Assembly: GCA_047947115.1 (NCBI GenBank)
Contig: CP170459.1
Coordinates: 1,600,001 to 1,664,000, forward strand
Direction of reading: 5' to 3'
Origin: Verrucomicrobiota bacterium
Lineage (GTDB): Bacteria > Verrucomicrobiota > Verrucomicrobiia > Limisphaerales > AAA164-E04
Length of the DNA stretch: 64,000 nt
Shown here: in pieces, positions 37,438-53,416 of the stretch
Layout: each line of letters begins with the position of its first letter
Position numbering within the stretch: position 1 is the first letter of the stretch
Notes under the pieces: model-generated
The model's database searches: none
What the model saw: only the letters and a program-made list of their open reading frames with translations
What the model was told of the DNA's origin: nothing
Program-made: the position numbers and the translations under genes

Positions 37438-38571
37438 GTGATGCCAAAGAGTCCCTGTCATATTTGTAATCAACCGTTGGAGTATCCCGAGGAACTTGCG
37501 GGGCAGCAGGTGGAGTGTCCTCATTGCGGGACGCAGACCAAGTTGCCGGTCATGTCCGATATTCTGGTGCGTATTCCTTCAGCGGTAGATGAGAGCATTC
37601 GGCAAAGTGCCGAATCTCCCATCGCCAGCGTCGCTCAGAAGGTGCTTTCCAATATGGGTAAAGTGGTCGTAGGGAAGGAAGAGACCATGGCGTTGGCTTT
37701 GACCGCGTGTCTGGCCGATGGTCATGTTTTGTTTGAGGATGTGCCGGGTGTCGCTAAAACCATGTTGGCGCGCGCCATGGCAATCAGTATGGGGTGTCCG
37801 TTCAAACGGATCCAATGTACGCCCGATCTATTGCCGAGTGATATTTCCGGTTCCTCGGTTTTTAATCCAAAGACCACGGATTTCGAATTTCGTGCCGGTC
37901 CGCTTTTCACGCAGGTGTTGTTGGCGGATGAAATCAATCGTGCCACGCCGCGCGCCCAGTCCGCCTTGTTGGAGGCGATGGCGGAACGTAAGGTGACGGT
38001 GGATGGAAAAACGCATGCATTGGAAGCGCCCTTCTTTTTGATTGCCACTCAAAATCCCATTGATCATGAGGGCACCTTTCCGCTGCCGGAAGCGCAGTTG
38101 GATCGTTTTTTGATGCGTCTGCAGTTGGGGTATCCCGGTACGGATCTGGAGATTCAGATGCTTCAGAACAATCAGTTGCAACATCCTATTGAAACATTGG
38201 AAGCTGTCACAGATTCCAGTGAAGTTTTGGAATGCCAAACCGCCGTGCGAAACATCAAGGTGCATCCCAAAGTGGCGGGTTATATTGTGGATATCGTGGA
38301 AGCTTCCAGGGGCCACGATGATATCCAGCTTGGTGCGAGTCCTCGAGCTTCTTTGGCCTTGTTTCGTTGTGCACAAGCTTACGCAGGAATTCATGGCTAT
38401 GATTTTGTGACTCCCGACGATGTCAAATATCTGGCTCCGTTCATCATGATGCATCGCCTGTTGTTGAAACCGGAAACCCGCCTGAGGAAGCGATCCTCCA
38501 AAGACATCATGCGCGACATCCTCAACTCCATTACCGTTCCTCAAATTCGGACCGAAGATTTGAACGCATGA
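37438..38571 (+). CDS. MoxR-family AAA+ ATPase with N-terminal zinc ribbon
   Basis: EDVPGVAKT, RIQCTPDLLPSD, LADEINRA, ATQNP; N-terminal CHIC...CPHC. Confidence 0.92.
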   Translation: MMPKSPCHICNQPLEYPEELAGQQVECPHCGTQTKLPVMSDILVRIPSAVDESIRQSAESPIASVAQKVLSNMGKVVVGKEETMALALTACLADGHVLFEDVPGVAKTMLARAMAISMGCPFKRIQCTPDLLPSDISGSSVFNPKTTDFEFRAGPLFTQVLLADEINRATPRAQSALLEAMAERKVTVDGKTHALEAPFFLIATQNPIDHEGTFPLPEAQLDRFLMRLQLGYPGTDLEIQMLQNNQLQHPIETLEAVTDSSEVLECQTAVRNIKVHPKVAGYIVDIVEASRGHDDIQLGASPRASLALFRCAQAYAGIHGYDFVTPDDVKYLAPFIMMHRLLLKPETRLRKRSSKDIMRDILNSITVPQIRTEDLNA

Positions 38572-39887
38572 AATGGATTGTCGGCACTCTCATTCTGCTG
38601 CTGATCGGTTTTGTTCTTCAGCTCAGCTTGCTGGTTTATTCCATGTATGTATTGGGTGGGATTCTGTTTGTGACACGAACCTTGTCCGCCATTTGGATCA
38701 AAGGACTGCAATGCTCCCGACACATTCATCAGACGGAGGCGGAGATAGGGGACATCGTCAAAATATCCGTCAAACTGAAGAACATTCATCCCTTTAACAT
38801 TCCCTGGGTTTTGTTCGAAGAAGAAGGTCCGAAAGATGACCTTATCTGCACACCGGTCAAGCTTCAGCTTAAGGGACCGCGGCTGGGGATCGAACGTTTC
38901 AAATCCGGGGCGATCAAGTTTTGGACCTATGAAGCAACCATGAAGGCTCGCGGGTATTATGTTTTTGGTCCGGCGCAGGTGGAAACGGGGGATGTGTTCG
39001 GGTTGCATCGAAAGCACCGGACCTTTGGGAAGCGGGATGGGGTTTTGGTGTTGCCAAAGGTGTTGCCTATTTTGCGCAATCAGTGGGCTTCCAACCGTGC
39101 GTTGGGAGAAACCCGGATCACGCACCGATTGTTTGAAGACCCCGCGAGATTTTCAGGGATTCGTCCCTATCAGGCGGGTGATCCGTTGAACCGGATTCAT
39201 TGGCGTGCCACGGCGAGGGCAGGGGAATTGCAGACACGCATGTTTGATCCATCCTGTATCCAGGGAGCCACGCTGATGGTTGATTTCCATGCATCCTCTT
39301 TTGGGGGAGGGAAGGATCATGGGGAAGCCGAGTTGCTGGTGACCACGACGGCGTCGTTGGCACATGCATTTGATGAGGCTGGTGAGCAGATTGGTCTGGT
39401 GGCATTGGCCGGAAACAAGGCCGAGCGGATTCAGCAGGAGGACAGGGAGGCGTTGAAACGATTGTATCGGCCATGGTTTTCTTCACAACCTCGCGAGAAA
39501 CGGCAACTCGAGCAATCCATCATCGTACCCACCCGGAAAGGAGGGGGGCAGCTACAGGTCATCAAGGAAGCGCTTGCCAAAATGGAGTTCGCCGGTGACG
39601 CGCTGTTTGATGAATGGATCATTGAATACAAAAACTGGCTGCCCCGGGATGCATCGGTCATTGTGCTGGCTCACGAACTGACTTCCGCTTTGATTCAAGG
39701 GATCGTGACACTCAAGGCATCCGGTTATCGGGTTTCCATGGTGCAGGTCAATTGGCAGAGTGAACTCAAACCCGACTGGGCTGCTCCATCTGAAGAACGT
39801 GCGGAGTTGGCTGCCACCGGGGTTCCGTGTTTCCATGTCAGGCAGGAGGAAGACATCGCCTGGCTTGGGAGTGATTTGTTGATTTAG
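38568..39887 (+). CDS. DUF58-family protein
   Basis: GIRPYQAGDPLNRIHWRATAR; ATGA-coupled to MoxR. Confidence 0.88.
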   Translation: MKWIVGTLILLLIGFVLQLSLLVYSMYVLGGILFVTRTLSAIWIKGLQCSRHIHQTEAEIGDIVKISVKLKNIHPFNIPWVLFEEEGPKDDLICTPVKLQLKGPRLGIERFKSGAIKFWTYEATMKARGYYVFGPAQVETGDVFGLHRKHRTFGKRDGVLVLPKVLPILRNQWASNRALGETRITHRLFEDPARFSGIRPYQAGDPLNRIHWRATARAGELQTRMFDPSCIQGATLMVDFHASSFGGGKDHGEAELLVTTTASLAHAFDEAGEQIGLVALAGNKAERIQQEDREALKRLYRPWFSSQPREKRQLEQSIIVPTRKGGGQLQVIKEALAKMEFAGDALFDEWIIEYKNWLPRDASVIVLAHELTSALIQGIVTLKASGYRVSMVQVNWQSELKPDWAAPSEERAELAATGVPCFHVRQEEDIAWLGSDLLI

Positions 39888-40250
39888 ATCCTGTGAGCAA
39901 TAAAAAGTCCGAAGCAAGATTCTCTCATGTTGATAACGACGCTACTGGAATTGTTGACCAGTGGAGAATGCGGATCCCCCTATTCGTTTTCTCGCAAAGG
40001 CGCAAAGGGCGCAGAGTTTTTTAGACAACGGAGGGATGATTCCGCATGCGGGGCTCACCTCCAAATTTCCCCCTCGAAAACGTCTCGGGGCATATGAGAT
40101 GGAACGCGGGGGGCTGAGGTTAATCGAAGGACTGTGGCGATTCCATTGCAGCGTAAAAATGGTTCCATAGTTCTGAGGAATGAAGTGGGTGTAAGGCGGC
40201 GCTTACCCCTCCGGTCGTGGGGATGTATTTTGGCCTGTGCCTGATGCGGA

Positions 40251-41003
40251 TCAGGGGAGGAGAATCTCTTTTCGGAGGCGTGCGAGTTTGGCTTCGGGCA
40301 ATCTTGTGTCTCTGCTTCCGGGGGATGGGTTTTCTGTTGCCACATGGCCGTCGCAAAATGCGACCACTGCTCGTTCATCATGCCGAAAATGTCCGTTTGC
40401 GTAGGCGCCCGGGCCATCGTTGATATAGTAGAATTCTTCGACCATCGGATGATCCGGTGAAGCGGGTGCTTGAAAGTCGTTGATTTGGGCGGCATCGGCA
40501 AACAGGGAAGTTCCGGAAGGATTGGATAATTGCGGAATGATCATCCCTCCTTGTTTGCTGCTGGGAGATGGAGTTCCATTCACGGCGAGATGAAGGTTGT
40601 AGCCGTAACCGAAAGAAGCTCCCAGTGCTTTGGGTTTGTAAAGTGGATCATGGAATCGAAAGGACGGGCAGATACCTACACCCTTGCCGCCCAGGTAAGG
40701 CCAGAGAACCCCTTTGCTATGGTCGATCTTGCGCTCCCCTTCCGGACCTTTCCCAAGCCATCCAAACCAGTAGATCATGCCATTGTCGATGGATTGCCCT
40801 GAATAAGACCAGGCTCGCTGATCCTGATCGTTCCAATACATTTGTCCCGCCAGTCCCAGTTGTTTTTGATTGGAAGTGCACTGGATCTGACGGGCTCGTG
40901 CTTTGGCGGATGCGAGTGCCGCAGTGAGCAGGGACGCAAGGATGCCGATGATGGCGATCACCACCATCAGCTCGATCAGCGTGAATCCCTGTCGTTTGCT
41001 CAT
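40251..41003 (-). CDS. Type IV pilin-like protein (prepilin N-methylation motif plus H-X9-DG domain)
   Basis: [16 protein letters not shown]-terminal [14 protein letters not shown]; 4-bp overlap with the upstream gene. Confidence 0.9.
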
Positions 41004-42742
41004 GGTTTCGGATGGCTTCGGACGCGATAGAATCCGGCGGTTTGCTCTGGGCCCAGGTCCTTGATCGACAGGGCACCATTCGCATCAGGTGAAGCGTAGC
41101 CTCGCGTTTCCCAGTCAGTGAAATTGTCGGTGCTTTCCAGCCAGTATTCCCATCCTGCGCGTGCCTGAGTCTTGATCCTGATGGATAATTCATCCCGCTC
41201 GATGCCTTCAATGTGGAGGGCGGTATGACGTTGAATGGACACGTTGTCCACCCAACCGTTGGCCAGGATGGAGCCATCCCATTCCGGTGATGGTTGTTGA
41301 GCATCGCTGTAATTGATCAGGGCAAAGGCATCCACATTGATTTCGGTGAAACCTCCCGCCGGACCTCCGAAGACGGTTCCCAGGTTTGCGTCTTTGATGG
41401 GGCCGAAGGGGGATCCGTCTTCGGTCATGGTTGTTCGCAGGGTTTGATCAGCGGCGGTGTAGTTTAGTTCCACTTCGTAGACGGATCCGGTTTGCAGTTC
41501 CAGTGGAAAGGTGTTTTCCACCGACCACTGATTGTCCTGGGAAATGAGGCCGGAGGAAATGGTGGCCCCAAATCCGGAATCCGGATGATAGCTCCATTCC
41601 ACCAATCCTCGAGGTCCATAATCAGCGTGAATACCCGACCCCCGGTAGAATTTGTCCCGGAAGGCTTCCCTGGTTTGGATCAGGCCGATGGCCAGGGGAA
41701 AGGTGAAACTCTTTTCAGGATCAATGCCCAGTTCGATGTGGTCGAGTAGAAGTGTGAAAGAGACACTGAAATCCTCATGGCGGGTAATCCTGGAGCCAAA
41801 CGGGAGGTAAAAGTAACTGTTGGGCTTTCGCGAATCCCAGGTGACTGAGAGTCGTTCATGCTCTGAATCCCAAGCAAACAAACTGGAATCACCGAAGGCG
41901 CGCCAGCCGGATGGCTCCGTGGGGTTTGTTGAAAAATCTTCTTCGTGATGGTTTGAATAGCTGGTTGCAGCGGGGCCCACAATGGAAGCGGCGTCCAGTT
42001 CGATTTTTCCGGAGGTGACTTCGATTTTTACATATCTTGCGGCAAAGTCTTCCGGGCTGCCCATGGCCCAGTCAAGATCGAAACCCGTTCCCCCTCCGGA
42101 GCCTTGGTAGAGGTCGCGGATGGCATTGTGTCCTGCCTGATCGAAATCAGCCCGCCCCAACATCGGATTGACCGGAATATGGAAATGACCGGATCCATCC
42201 GTAGGAAAATAGGCATCCAATTTGGGTGTTTTTACAGAATTCAATGAATAGAATACCACGTTGTCCTCACTCACACTGATGGACACTTCCGCCGTATCGT
42301 TTCCGAATAGGGAACCATCGGTGATCCCTCCACCTGAGTAATCGCCATTAATGATGTTGAAGCCGGTATGGCCAAACAGGATGAAATCCAGGCCGTAAGG
42401 ATTGTCGGGATGATTAAAAATTGGCGTGTCGAACGAAAGGATCACAGAACCTCCTTCACCGACTGAAAGCAATTGTTCGGAGAGGTAAGGCGGTGAAAAT
42501 GGATCAACAGGGCCCCCGAACGGTCCAGGAGTGATGCGTGATGGTTCACCCAGCACGGCCAGCGTGTTGGTGTAGCCTAAGCCGGAACCGAACTCCACGG
42601 CAAATCCAGTTCCGGGGGTGTATGCAATCACTTCTGTAGCATAAGAGGAGGCATTGGAACGGGTGAATGAACTGAGCGAACCCAAAGTGAACAAAAGTAA
42701 AATGAGAGACTTTGAATTGATGGGGATGTGATGATGTTTCAT
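41000..42742 (-). CDS. Secreted or surface protein, putative cobalamin-binding, with C-terminal FYRV module
   Basis: Start at MKHHH (42742), downstream of the riboswitch terminator; signal peptide; motifs [24 protein letters not shown] and GFDLDWA..YVKI recall Bacteroides B12-locus surface proteins (BtuH-like) from memory only. Confidence 0.65.
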
Positions 42743-42813
42743 GGATACTGGTCTTTCTAATGATTCCTGAACGGAATGGATTTGGGCTGTTGAAGACCAG
42801 GTGGAGGGGACAC

Positions 42814-42853
42814 AAAAAAAACCTTCAGTCCCACCACTTAGAGAATGAAGGTT
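42814..42853 (-). terminator. Riboswitch attenuator (intrinsic terminator)
   Basis: Minus strand AACCTTCA...TGAAGGTT followed by a T-run, between the aptamer and the start codon. Confidence 0.75.
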
Positions 42854-42955
42854 GTCGAAAGGCAACACGAACGCTACCCGAACACGCACTCGCGAGTCGG
42901 CTGGTCTCATCCTTCTCATTGACGGAGAAGCGGGCCCTATGGGGCCCAGACGAGA

Positions 42956-43100
42956 GCGAAACAACCGGTATCCTGACTTAGAGTTCCAAACCTTGTTTCC
43001 GCCTTCCCAGCATGTTGCCAGTGGCCTATTGGAAACTTGTCACTCCTCACAGTGGCGCAACCGTCCCCGACTTGCACGGGGTTCCCTGCCATTGATTCGC
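42956..43100 (-). promoter_or_regulatory. Cobalamin (B12) riboswitch
   Basis: Minus strand AGGGAA-CCCCG-TGCAAGT-CGGGG-ACGGTTGCGCCACTGTGA...GCCACTG...GGGAAGGC...AAGTCAGGATACCGG (B12 box). Confidence 0.93.
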
Positions 43101-43509
43101 TTTCTATGACCCGGCCACGACGACCGGGGATATGTATCAAAGAACGTGGTCGCATAGTAGGATGGGTGGCGCTGGTGTCAAGTTATCCTGTTCACCACTT
43201 GCCTCAGCATCGACAACACCGCTTTATTATGGCACTTGTTGCCATGCTTGCAGGCTTCAGAAGCAAGGCAAATTTTATGCTCCACTTCAGACATATCCCT
43301 TTTCACAAACCAATCTGTTAAAATCGAGCGGTTCAGCCTTAAACGGGTTGGTTTTGAAGTTTATACTGATTGCTAAAAGTATTTGTGCATAAAGGGCTCG
43401 CTGATGCTTCTTATCCTCACGCCCTCCCGCATTCGCGGGATAGGGACGCAGTGATGCAGAGTTTTTCTGAAATTAATTTTGGCAAACGTTATATTTGTGT
43501 CGGTGAAAT

Positions 43510-43541
43510 AAAAAAGCCCGCTGCGTAAACAGCGGGCTTTT
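43510..43541 (-). terminator. Intrinsic terminator
   Basis: AAAAGCCCGCTG-loop-CAGCGGGCTTTT downstream of the pilin-like gene. Confidence 0.85.
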
Positions 43542-43568: not shown

Positions 43569-44456
43569 TTAGAACTGGCTACGAATCCACTGCTCGGTAA
43601 TGTTGTCCTTACGTTGCGTGCGAAGCGACCACCAAAGAGCATCAGCATCCGCTTTGCAGTAGGCACGAATTGCGCCAAGACTTCCTGTGCCGGCGGGTGT
43701 GATGACGAAAGGAGCCGTTGAAAGGCCGCCTGTCCAGCGGTGGACTTCGGAATGTCCGTCTGCGAAGGCGATACCGGCAGCACCGTTGTGATAGTTGGCG
43801 GGCACGTCGACCCAGCCGTTGCCACCTGGTTCGTAGGTGAAATTACCCACATCGTTGATGCTGTCAGGATGCTCGTCCATGTAAACCCAGGTTTCGGAAG
43901 GACCAGGGCTGGTCAGTCCGGAAGTTTTGGCAGTGAACCGTGGAAATGCCGCGGTATCCCAAGCGTTGGAATCGTCACCGATACGAATGTTTCCAGAGAT
44001 GCTACGTACCCGCTCTGTATATCCTGCGCGGCGTTGGGCTGCACTCAGGAAGTGATCCGAAGGGCACTTGAAGATGTTCTTAGCGCCGGAGAAGTAAGAA
44101 GCCAGTTTGGAGTATCTTGGATCCAACAGGTACTGGACGTTGGTGTTGGCTTCGTAAACGGTCCAGGTCATCGAGCCGGTCACCCAAGAGCCCTGATTGA
44201 TCTCCGATCCACCACCGTGTCTGGTTTTAGGAAAGCTTTCATCATTGTCACCTGTATACATGTGACAGGCGAGCATGAGCTGCTTGGTGTTGTTCATGCA
44301 GAGAATGCCCTTGGCCTTGTCTTTGGCTTTGCTGAGAGCCGGAAGGAGCATGCCTGCGAGAATCGCGATAATGGCAATAACAACGAGCAGCTCGATCAGT
44401 GTAAATCCACTTCGAACCGTCTTGCCCCGGTTTGCTTGTGTGTACGCTAGTTTCAT
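43569..44456 (-). CDS. Type IV pilin-like protein (prepilin plus H-X9-DG)
   Basis: [49 protein letters not shown]. Confidence 0.92.
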
Positions 44457-53340: not shown

Positions 53341-53416
53341 TGGTGGGCGAAGAGGGACTCGAACCCCCGACCTACTGTGTGTAAGACAGCTGCGCTAGCC
53401 ACTGCGCCATTCGCCC
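53341..53416 (-). tRNA. tRNA-Val(TAC)
   Basis: Cloverleaf GGGCGAA...TTCGCCC-ACCA; anticodon loop CT-TAC-AC; TTCGA T-loop; 76 nt. Confidence 0.96.

Follow-up and report, generated by a model that had tools for sequence, protein, structure and literature searches.

A riboswitch-led pilin unit as a candidate B12 uptake route in place of BtuB in Verrucomicrobiota

Introduction

Active uptake of vitamin B12 across the outer membrane is carried out by BtuB and TonB. Another transport across this membrane is that of competence type IV pili, in which a dedicated pilin binds DNA as cargo and filament dynamics move the cargo through a secretin. For filament assembly, the cleavage site and residue E5 of prepilins are required.

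In the auxotrophic Bacteroides thetaiotaomicron, BtuB and the B12-binding surface proteins BtuG, BtuH and BtuJ are under cobalamin-riboswitch control (PMC8941943; 10.1101/2025.08.21.671476). BtuH binds B12 via a domain of known structure (7BIZ, 8BLW), according to PMC8941943. The accessible text of the DUF4465 study reports B12 binding in seven members, one of them from Coraliomargarita, and makes no mention of pilins (10.1101/2025.08.21.671476). The H-X9-DG/DUF1559 (SBP_bac_10) pilins of the PVC bacteria (TIGR04294, PF07596) are an expanded family for which the available text of PMC8567305 gives no function; few unexplained protein families in Verrucomicrobiota and Planctomycetota are as large. 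For Akkermansiaceae, a role of pilin-like MUL proteins in glycan acquisition is described in PMC13174399.

Here, a two-gene unit is described which was found in the window, i.e. the whole analysed stretch of 64,000 nucleotides from a Verrucomicrobiota bacterium (contig CP170459.1, positions 1,600,001 to 1,664,000). With the B. thetaiotaomicron system it shares cobalamin-riboswitch control and an auxotrophic host, and the exported B12-capture proteins of that relay have counterparts in a BtuH fold here and in DUF4465 in relatives. In contrast to B. thetaiotaomicron, there is no TonB receptor in the unit and no BtuB-clade receptor was found in the host genome; a prepilin, P0002, stands in its place. 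Partners in pilin units bear PEP-CTERM motifs or a tail, whereas those of B. thetaiotaomicron are lipoproteins, and the second domain of the surface protein P0001 is without counterpart in that relay, as far as the cited texts describe it. P0002 has the class III signal, the length of about 250 aa and the C-terminal H-X9-DG of the PVC pilins (PMC8567305) and, like them, belongs to dozens of paralogues per genome. It differs from the family at large in that its orthologues form a single-copy lineage linked to B12 riboswitches. Compared with competence pili, its cargo would be a 1.3-kDa cofactor and its control that of a metabolite riboswitch, with a mechanism that we infer. The mucin utilisation loci MUL1 and MUL2 of Akkermansia muciniphila likewise implicate pilin-like proteins in verrucomicrobial nutrient acquisition; MUL2A is set apart by its description as archaeal-type-pilin-like, with PilM in the locus, a glycan substrate and no riboswitch (PMC13174399).

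Structure of the riboswitch-led unit

All features of the unit are listed in Table 1. The aptamer matches the full RF00174 model far above the gathering score of 31.5 (E 7.7e-19) and is the only cobalamin riboswitch found in the host genome; a sequence-only reading of this DNA had placed it at 42956-43100, within the match. The terminator proposed in the same reading is borne out by its fold. The hairpin (42853-42820) is followed by U8 down to 42814 and reaches -15.5 kcal/mol (z -2.46; equalled by 3 of 200 shuffles); it is absent from the output of a simple terminator scan. The hairpin is likely the expression platform of the riboswitch. Promoter sites of the kind found upstream of the aptamer occur three times in the region, with 3.2 expected, so that the position of this candidate is its sole support.

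Table 1. Features of the unit (positions in the window).
Feature	Position	Strand	Basis
Candidate sigma-70 promoter, TTGACA-16-TACTAT	43154..43181	(-)	upstream of aptamer, 10/12 consensus matches
Cobalamin riboswitch aptamer	42946..43111	(-)	Rfam RF00174, 82.6 bits
Intrinsic-terminator-like hairpin + U8	42814..42853	(-)	folding energy vs shuffles
P0001, 580-aa secreted fusion: signal peptide, domain A, domain B, C-terminal tail	41000..42742	(-)	ORF
Domain A, residues 31-258, BtuH fold	41969..42652	(-)	predicted structure, pLDDT 92.8
Domain B, residues 262-508, legume-lectin/ConA-like beta-sandwich	41219..41959	(-)	predicted structure, pLDDT 94.4
C-terminal tail, ~70 aa	41003..41215	(-)	profile matches in other large proteins
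P0002, 250-aa prepilin, class III signal G/FTLIE (slash, cleavage site), C-terminal H-X9-DG; B12-linked 'type I' pilin	40251..41003	(-)	ORF + models

The ORF of P0001 runs from ATG at 42742 to TGA at 41000, which agrees with the 580-aa secreted protein claimed before; the signal peptide was called by eye. A longer P0001 of 654 aa from a TTG at 42964 was rejected, since this start lies within the aptamer and 5' of the terminator. The stop codon overlaps the start codon of P0002 as ATGA (41000-41003). An upstream pilin gene (43569-44456) was ruled out as a member, because it has its own terminator (43512-43541) and is located 5' of the riboswitch promoter. The next gene downstream of P0002 is on the opposite strand, hence the unit consists of two genes only and contains no btuB, btuFCD or B12-enzyme gene, as had been stated from the sequence. 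Metatranscriptome contigs from four RNA runs cover the unit and one of them, X1, spans 40112-42936. The flanks show similar RNA depth and, thus, these data inform neither on co-transcription nor on regulation.

Domain architecture of P0001

Searches with P0001 gave no match in Pfam (E 0.1), including PF14717 (DUF4465/BtuJ), or in NCBIfam. A single-sequence search of the PDB returned antibody-chain noise alone (E ≥ 0.1) and the ESM Atlas unnamed clusters only, with the LIC_13355 family and DUF6645 as leads. Of the 101 genomes analysed from the order, 78 encode homologues, which match residues ~30-258 (domain A) and 262-580 (domain B plus tail); the two domains are either fused or, in many relatives, encoded by separate adjacent genes.

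The model of domain A was compared with 48,161 chains. The best two matches are BtuH domains, namely 7biz_B (Z 12.4, rmsd 3.5, 152 aligned, 24% identity) and 8blw_B (Z 12.3), followed by CBM32 domains (Z 9.6). Weak agreement with the BtuH fold comes from Foldseek and from the sequence profile (E 8.5e-4 to 8BLW_B, 0.033 to 7BIZ), and structures of BtuG and BtuJ were not among the listed fold matches of domain A or domain B. The resemblance to BtuH-like proteins which the sequence-only reading had noted for P0001 is backed by the predicted fold and confined to residues 31-258. Among the residues by which BtuH2 contacts B12 (Gln333, Asn399, Phe401, His476, Tyr510, Trp511, Trp577 and Leu578), the region of Asn399 alone was alignable to P0001, with an inferred numbering offset. 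The phosphate-contacting Asn399 apparently aligns to a His, which counts against a simple transfer of BtuH function to domain A. Of the 88 homologues that were parsed (109 matches, minus 14 unparsed and 7 duplicates), 44 have Asn at this position, and the partners of type II pilins have GN here in 7/7 parsed cases. A PEP-CTERM-type motif ends 67 of 72 standalone domain A proteins. P0001 is unlike BtuH, a lipoprotein with PKD repeats encoded beside btuB, as its N-terminal region contains no Cys; a PKD match was not obtained either.

The model of domain B is a sandwich of the legume-lectin type, which matches peanut lectin (Z 15.2, rmsd 3.5, 208 aligned, 12% identity) and is also recovered by Foldseek (E 2e-8). 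We know of no B12 precedent for this glycan-binding-type fold. The architectures behind 108 riboswitches comprise 20 AB-pilin, 17 A-B-pilin, 12 B-pilin and 2 A-pilin loci. Domain B occurs in nearly all of these, so that B, not the BtuH-like domain A, is the constant partner of the pilin. When domain B plus tail and the pilin head were modelled as a complex from 76-row alignments, the score was 0.00, which gave no answer. The profile of the tail matches 26 ORFs of the host genome and the match is C-terminal in 25, which suggests that the tail is likely a surface-sorting domain.

P0002 and its orthologues

P0002 is recognised by both prepilin models above cut-off (PF07963, 39.2 bits against 21.2; TIGR02532, 36.5 bits against 16.3), and an intact G/F cleavage site, E5 and a hydrophobic helix are all present; E5 is nearly invariant. 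The H-X9-DG motif was seen by eye and is conserved; the scores of the family models are below cut-off (TIGR04294, 17.1 against 19; PF07596, 22.6 against 23.3). With the ATGA overlap, the earlier claim of an overlapping prepilin/H-X9-DG gene stands, its second half by eye. The host genome contains 82 ORFs with prepilin motif and the body of P0002 matches only itself among them.

A search of the order yielded 70 matches in 69 of the 101 genomes, all with E < 1e-24; between this value and 1e-8, there is no further match. Their identity to P0002 is 44-60%, the closest relative excepted. A riboswitch is found ≤ 6 kb upstream in 54 of the 70 orthologues and domain A or B ≤ 4 kb upstream in 61; for comparison, a random point of the host genome has a same-strand prepilin ORF ≤ 4 kb downstream 2.6% of the time. 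Of the 16 orthologues for which none was seen in this range, many lie next to a contig end, and the riboswitch of G022 was found as RF01482; the single-contig genomes G011 and G014 have none within 6 kb. When loci were collected from GTDB via domain A, a set which overlaps the order survey, 70 of 80 contained the pilin; of the 10 without it, most are truncated by the end of a contig. These loci are mostly from Verrucomicrobiota, several from Limisphaerales/Pedosphaera.

In a FastTree phylogeny, the pilins that form a group with P0002 are B12-linked ones of other classes (support 0.93-0.95) and not the 70 H-X9-DG paralogues of its own genome. The B12-linked pilins are paraphyletic to these paralogues in this tree, which holds no pilins of other classes other than B12-linked ones.

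Distribution of pilins and TonB receptors

The type I pilin is present in 69, the type II pilin in 10 and the riboswitch-led TonB receptor in 17 of the 101 genomes. Pilin and receptor occur together in a single genome (G018; expected, 13.3), which has a size of 10.6 Mb and carries btuB with a cobalamin-salvage cluster; when each family is represented by one genome (80 in total), none has both. Six genomes have neither pilin type nor receptor, two of which show a riboswitch-A(-B) arrangement at a contig end. In the order, 45 riboswitches do not head a type I unit; 43 were read and 2 are at contig ends. Ten lead a larger BtuH-like protein plus a type II pilin. An intact TonB receptor, always of the same clade, follows 16 riboswitches, and a further one (G073) is followed by a broken copy. 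The remaining ones precede cobN, a SusC-like receptor or a ribonucleotide reductase of class I, which was checked against Pfam in 3 cases. With a profile of the 16 receptors, left-out members reached 563-749 bits, and no non-member in the 101 genomes scored above 252. On an rpoB tree of 56 genomes, whose deep support is low, at least five switches between receptor and pilin are found; with 5 changes of state compared with 12.5 in shuffled data, the distribution is clustered and kin are not independent. The near-complete mutual exclusion with riboswitch-led BtuB is the strongest evidence, by genome comparison, for a putative uptake module.

In 150 genomes of other Verrucomicrobiota, 84 riboswitches scored above threshold and 60 of them were read: 22 precede an H-X9-DG-type pilin and 16 a TonB receptor, with no genome in both groups. 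Further loci contain one atypical prepilin and one candidate pilin. DUF4465 is the partner in 8 of the 22 pilin loci, and type I pilins have DUF4465-PEP-CTERM partners in L102, L103 and L105; in L120, DUF4465 precedes a TonB receptor and a pilin is missing. As the partner of type I pilins is domain B or DUF4465 depending on the family, domain B is suggested to be interchangeable with a proven B12 binder.

A second phylum, probably Planctomycetota, was also examined (centre G251; 60 of 72 eligible single-riboswitch genomes read). Eight of the 60 loci are led by a pilin, 19 have a TonB receptor, none both and 33 neither. The operon in L274 has the order pilin, BtuF-like, BtuC-like, ABC ATPase, cobQ, cobA; the pilin, being first in a btuF-C-D-like operon, occupies exactly the slot of btuB. 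DUF6580 membrane genes follow the pilin in L217, L239, L288, L289 and L290, mostly with PF01497 genes (both downstream of the pilin in L288, L289 and L239). Across all loci read, pilin and BtuF-like gene share one operon in L036, L239, L274 and L288, and L217, L239 and L274 are pilin-led operons without a large surface partner. The synteny of riboswitch, surface protein and pilin, set beforehand as a refuting test, is thus conserved in the order, in the phylum and in a second phylum.

B12 requirement and transport genes of the host

The host genome (G000) is a single contig of 6.08 Mb and 95.8% complete. Its only PF02867 match is the B12-dependent reductase NrdJ (TIGR02504, 541 against 400), and no match to PF00268 (class I small subunit) or PF13597 (NrdD) was obtained. 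MetH is present, besides two short MetE-like proteins below cut-off. CobS was found in 2 of the 101 genomes of the order and not in the host.

A BtuB-clade gene was not found in the host genome, where the clade profile scored at best 105 bits (563-749 for left-out receptors). The best TIGR01779 score is 93 against a cut-off of 599.7, which the BtuBs of B. thetaiotaomicron miss likewise. Four TonB-receptor loci exist, none with a riboswitch or within the riboswitch-led clade; one receptor (718 aa; best match heme-type, under cut-off) is convergent with metH. An unregulated TonB receptor could carry B12 instead. No BtuF-type protein (PF01497) exceeds the cut-off. Filament genes are represented by 8 secretin loci, 10 PF00437 ATPases above cut-off, one of them a confirmed PilT, and several T2SS-like clusters; no filament-machinery gene is linked to the two-gene unit. 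A DUF6580 gene is present and unlinked.

Discussion

The sequence-only reading had proposed a candidate non-BtuB cobalamin capture module, and the conserved synteny and the BtuH-like predicted fold support this. Judged from gene content and gene order, the two-gene unit quite probably serves B12 uptake in place of BtuB. Uptake through a type IV filament and secretin is a narrower proposal, to which we give an even chance. The best explanation overall is a B12-repressed module in which a dedicated pilin may take over the outer-membrane step of BtuB; its likelihood is also rated as evenly balanced. Points against it are the His at the Asn399 position, the glycan-binding-type fold of domain B, the TonB receptors outside riboswitch control, the orthologues with no riboswitch nearby, the higher share of PF01497 among receptor genomes, the unlinked machinery genes and the 33 loci of the second phylum with neither pilin nor receptor. 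The pilin excludes BtuB, coexists with BtuF-like genes and keeps cleavage site and E5, with the machinery encoded in the genome, which makes the outer-membrane step the simplest reading.

According to this proposal, low B12 would cause read-through of the terminator. P0001 would reach the surface through its tail, where domain A and/or domain B would concentrate the cobamide. P0002 would be processed by prepilin peptidase, become a subunit of a T4P/T2SS-like filament and pick up B12 or the loaded partner, which retraction through the secretin would bring to the periplasm. The inner membrane may then be crossed by means of the DUF6580 membrane protein, together with a BtuF-like protein where present.

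Two other roles of the pilin are each regarded as unlikely. It might be an export or display adaptor, i.e. a substrate-specific pseudopilin for its B12-binding partner, with B12 entering via an unregulated route such as a TonB receptor. The type of pilin indeed follows that of the partner, as domain B goes with type I and the larger BtuH-like protein with type II, and the host encodes other TonB receptors, including the one beside metH, as well as several T2SS-like clusters. However, DUF4465-PEP-CTERM proteins are partners of type I pilins as well, some pilin-led operons have no large surface partner at all, the partners bear PEP-CTERM or tail signals of their own, DUF4465 manages without a pilin in L120, and the loss of BtuB is left unexplained. 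Alternatively, the pilin might form no filament and be a BtuF-like periplasmic B12 trap whose N-terminal helix anchors it to the inner membrane, driving entry via a porin or open secretin. PF01497 is missing above cut-off from the host and from 54 of 79 pilin genomes; it accompanies the receptor in 12 of 17 genomes and the pilins in only 25 of 79, so that a periplasmic role of the pilin also fits. Furthermore, the related DUF1559 family is named SBP_bac_10 by Pfam, and planctomycete proteins combining N_methyl with SBP_bac_10 are reported from detergent-soluble fractions in PMC8567305. Against such a trap, the pilin shares operons with BtuF-like genes and not with BtuB, and it retains the cleavage site and E5 needed for filament assembly.

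A role in adhesion under B12 starvation, by which lectin-fold domain and pilin would attach the cell to B12 producers or particles without any part in transport, is considered very unlikely. It would agree with the similarity of domain B to L-type lectins and with the attachment function proposed for Akkermansia MUL2 pilin-like proteins (PMC13174399), but explains neither the exclusion with BtuB nor the DUF4465- and BtuH-type partners nor the btuF-C-D and DUF6580 neighbours.

As an extension of the preferred outer-membrane role, the H-X9-DG/DUF1559 pilins of PVC bacteria might serve as exchangeable heads, each specific for its substrate, of an importer which is built on a type IV filament and replaces TonB-dependent receptors. 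This is offered tentatively and is more doubtful than the B12 case; the 82 prepilin-motif ORFs against 4 TonB-receptor loci in the host are put forward in its support.

In the open-access literature, no riboswitch-controlled pilin in B12 uptake, no paper on DUF1559 with cobalamin and none on DUF6580 was found. Supplements of riboswitch-regulon surveys could contain these genes. Within the literature searched, the pilin unit is likely an undescribed B12 uptake route. Besides the pilin, domain B with its lectin fold and the membrane proteins of the DUF6580 family are newly nominated as candidate B12 proteins.

Most genomes of a widespread auxotrophic order have the pilin in place of BtuB, and such swaps recur in evolution. 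If the pilin performs the step of BtuB, this would be a new class of outer-membrane nutrient import. The B12 pilin would then be the first H-X9-DG pilin whose cargo is assigned, as well as the first vitamin importer driven by a pilus, and the H-X9-DG family would gain its first substrate, its first regulator and a first selectable phenotype, NrdJ-dependent growth on limiting B12.

Other riboswitch-led architectures

The type II module was found at loci L036, L037, L038, L043, L047, L051, L053, L054, L057 and L059, and replaces type I in scattered lineages. Its large protein consists of an unannotated N-terminal domain, which also occurs as a standalone protein with PEP-CTERM, followed by a BtuH-like domain and a tail; the C-terminal end of its pilin is LYDLE. 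The prepilin at locus L100 differs from the three main types in being devoid of H-X9-DG. In four Verrucomicrobiota genomes, cobalamin riboswitches lead HlyD-type (RND-efflux-like) genes (L076, L078, L079, L080).

Two divergent riboswitches were present at L062 of G018, with btuB and salvage genes on one side and cobN on the other, in a gene order similar to that of G052 (L039). G018 is the one genome which, besides this btuB locus, also retains the type I pilin unit.

A related protein of 450-530 AA was encoded at 14 riboswitch loci of the second phylum (L223, L227, L229, L235, L243, L244, L247, L255, L257, L259, L264, L269, L272, L275), with beta-propeller matches in some members, and is followed by an FGE-sulfatase-domain protein at three of them. 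Neither a pilin nor a TonB receptor was found within 7 kb at these 14 loci, which possibly represent a further uptake type.

Features of the window

Coordinates of window features and of genes in compared loci
Feature	Position	Strand	Remarks
MoxR AAA ATPase (N-terminal zinc ribbon) and DUF58 gene	window 37438-39887	+	convergent with riboswitch-pilin unit
Short repeat-like element	window 43393-43493		between upstream pilin and riboswitch promoter
Second H-X9-DG-type prepilin, 295 AA	window 43569-44456	-	own terminator; just upstream of riboswitch
tRNA gene	window 53344-53416	-	
DUF6580 gene of source genome (G000)	L283:105-722		
Prepilin, 286 AA	L100:5269-6126	-	directly after riboswitch

RNA contig depth in three metatranscriptomes was 578-1183 for the upstream prepilin versus 4-64 for the flanking genes, although contig depth is no basis for ranking genes; this prepilin may be an abundant major subunit. 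Many metatranscriptome contigs leave the window with loose ends at the repeat-like element, a pattern as for a dispersed repeat. The MoxR/DUF58 pair are ordinary genes unrelated to the riboswitch-pilin unit.

Accessory genes of B12 operons

In B12 operons, genes of PF01902 (diphthamide-synthase-like ATP-binding) are located downstream of TonB receptors as well as of pilin units. Membership was Pfam-checked in L048, L239 and L290 and assigned from similar N-termini in L046, L063, L224 and L293. Operons led by a cobalamin riboswitch repeatedly encode DUF6580 membrane proteins (L288, L289, L290, L217, L239); the term DUF6580 was not found in the open-access papers searched. DUF6580 is a candidate for a new inner-membrane B12 transporter, and the PF01902 product could possibly be a corrinoid-processing enzyme.
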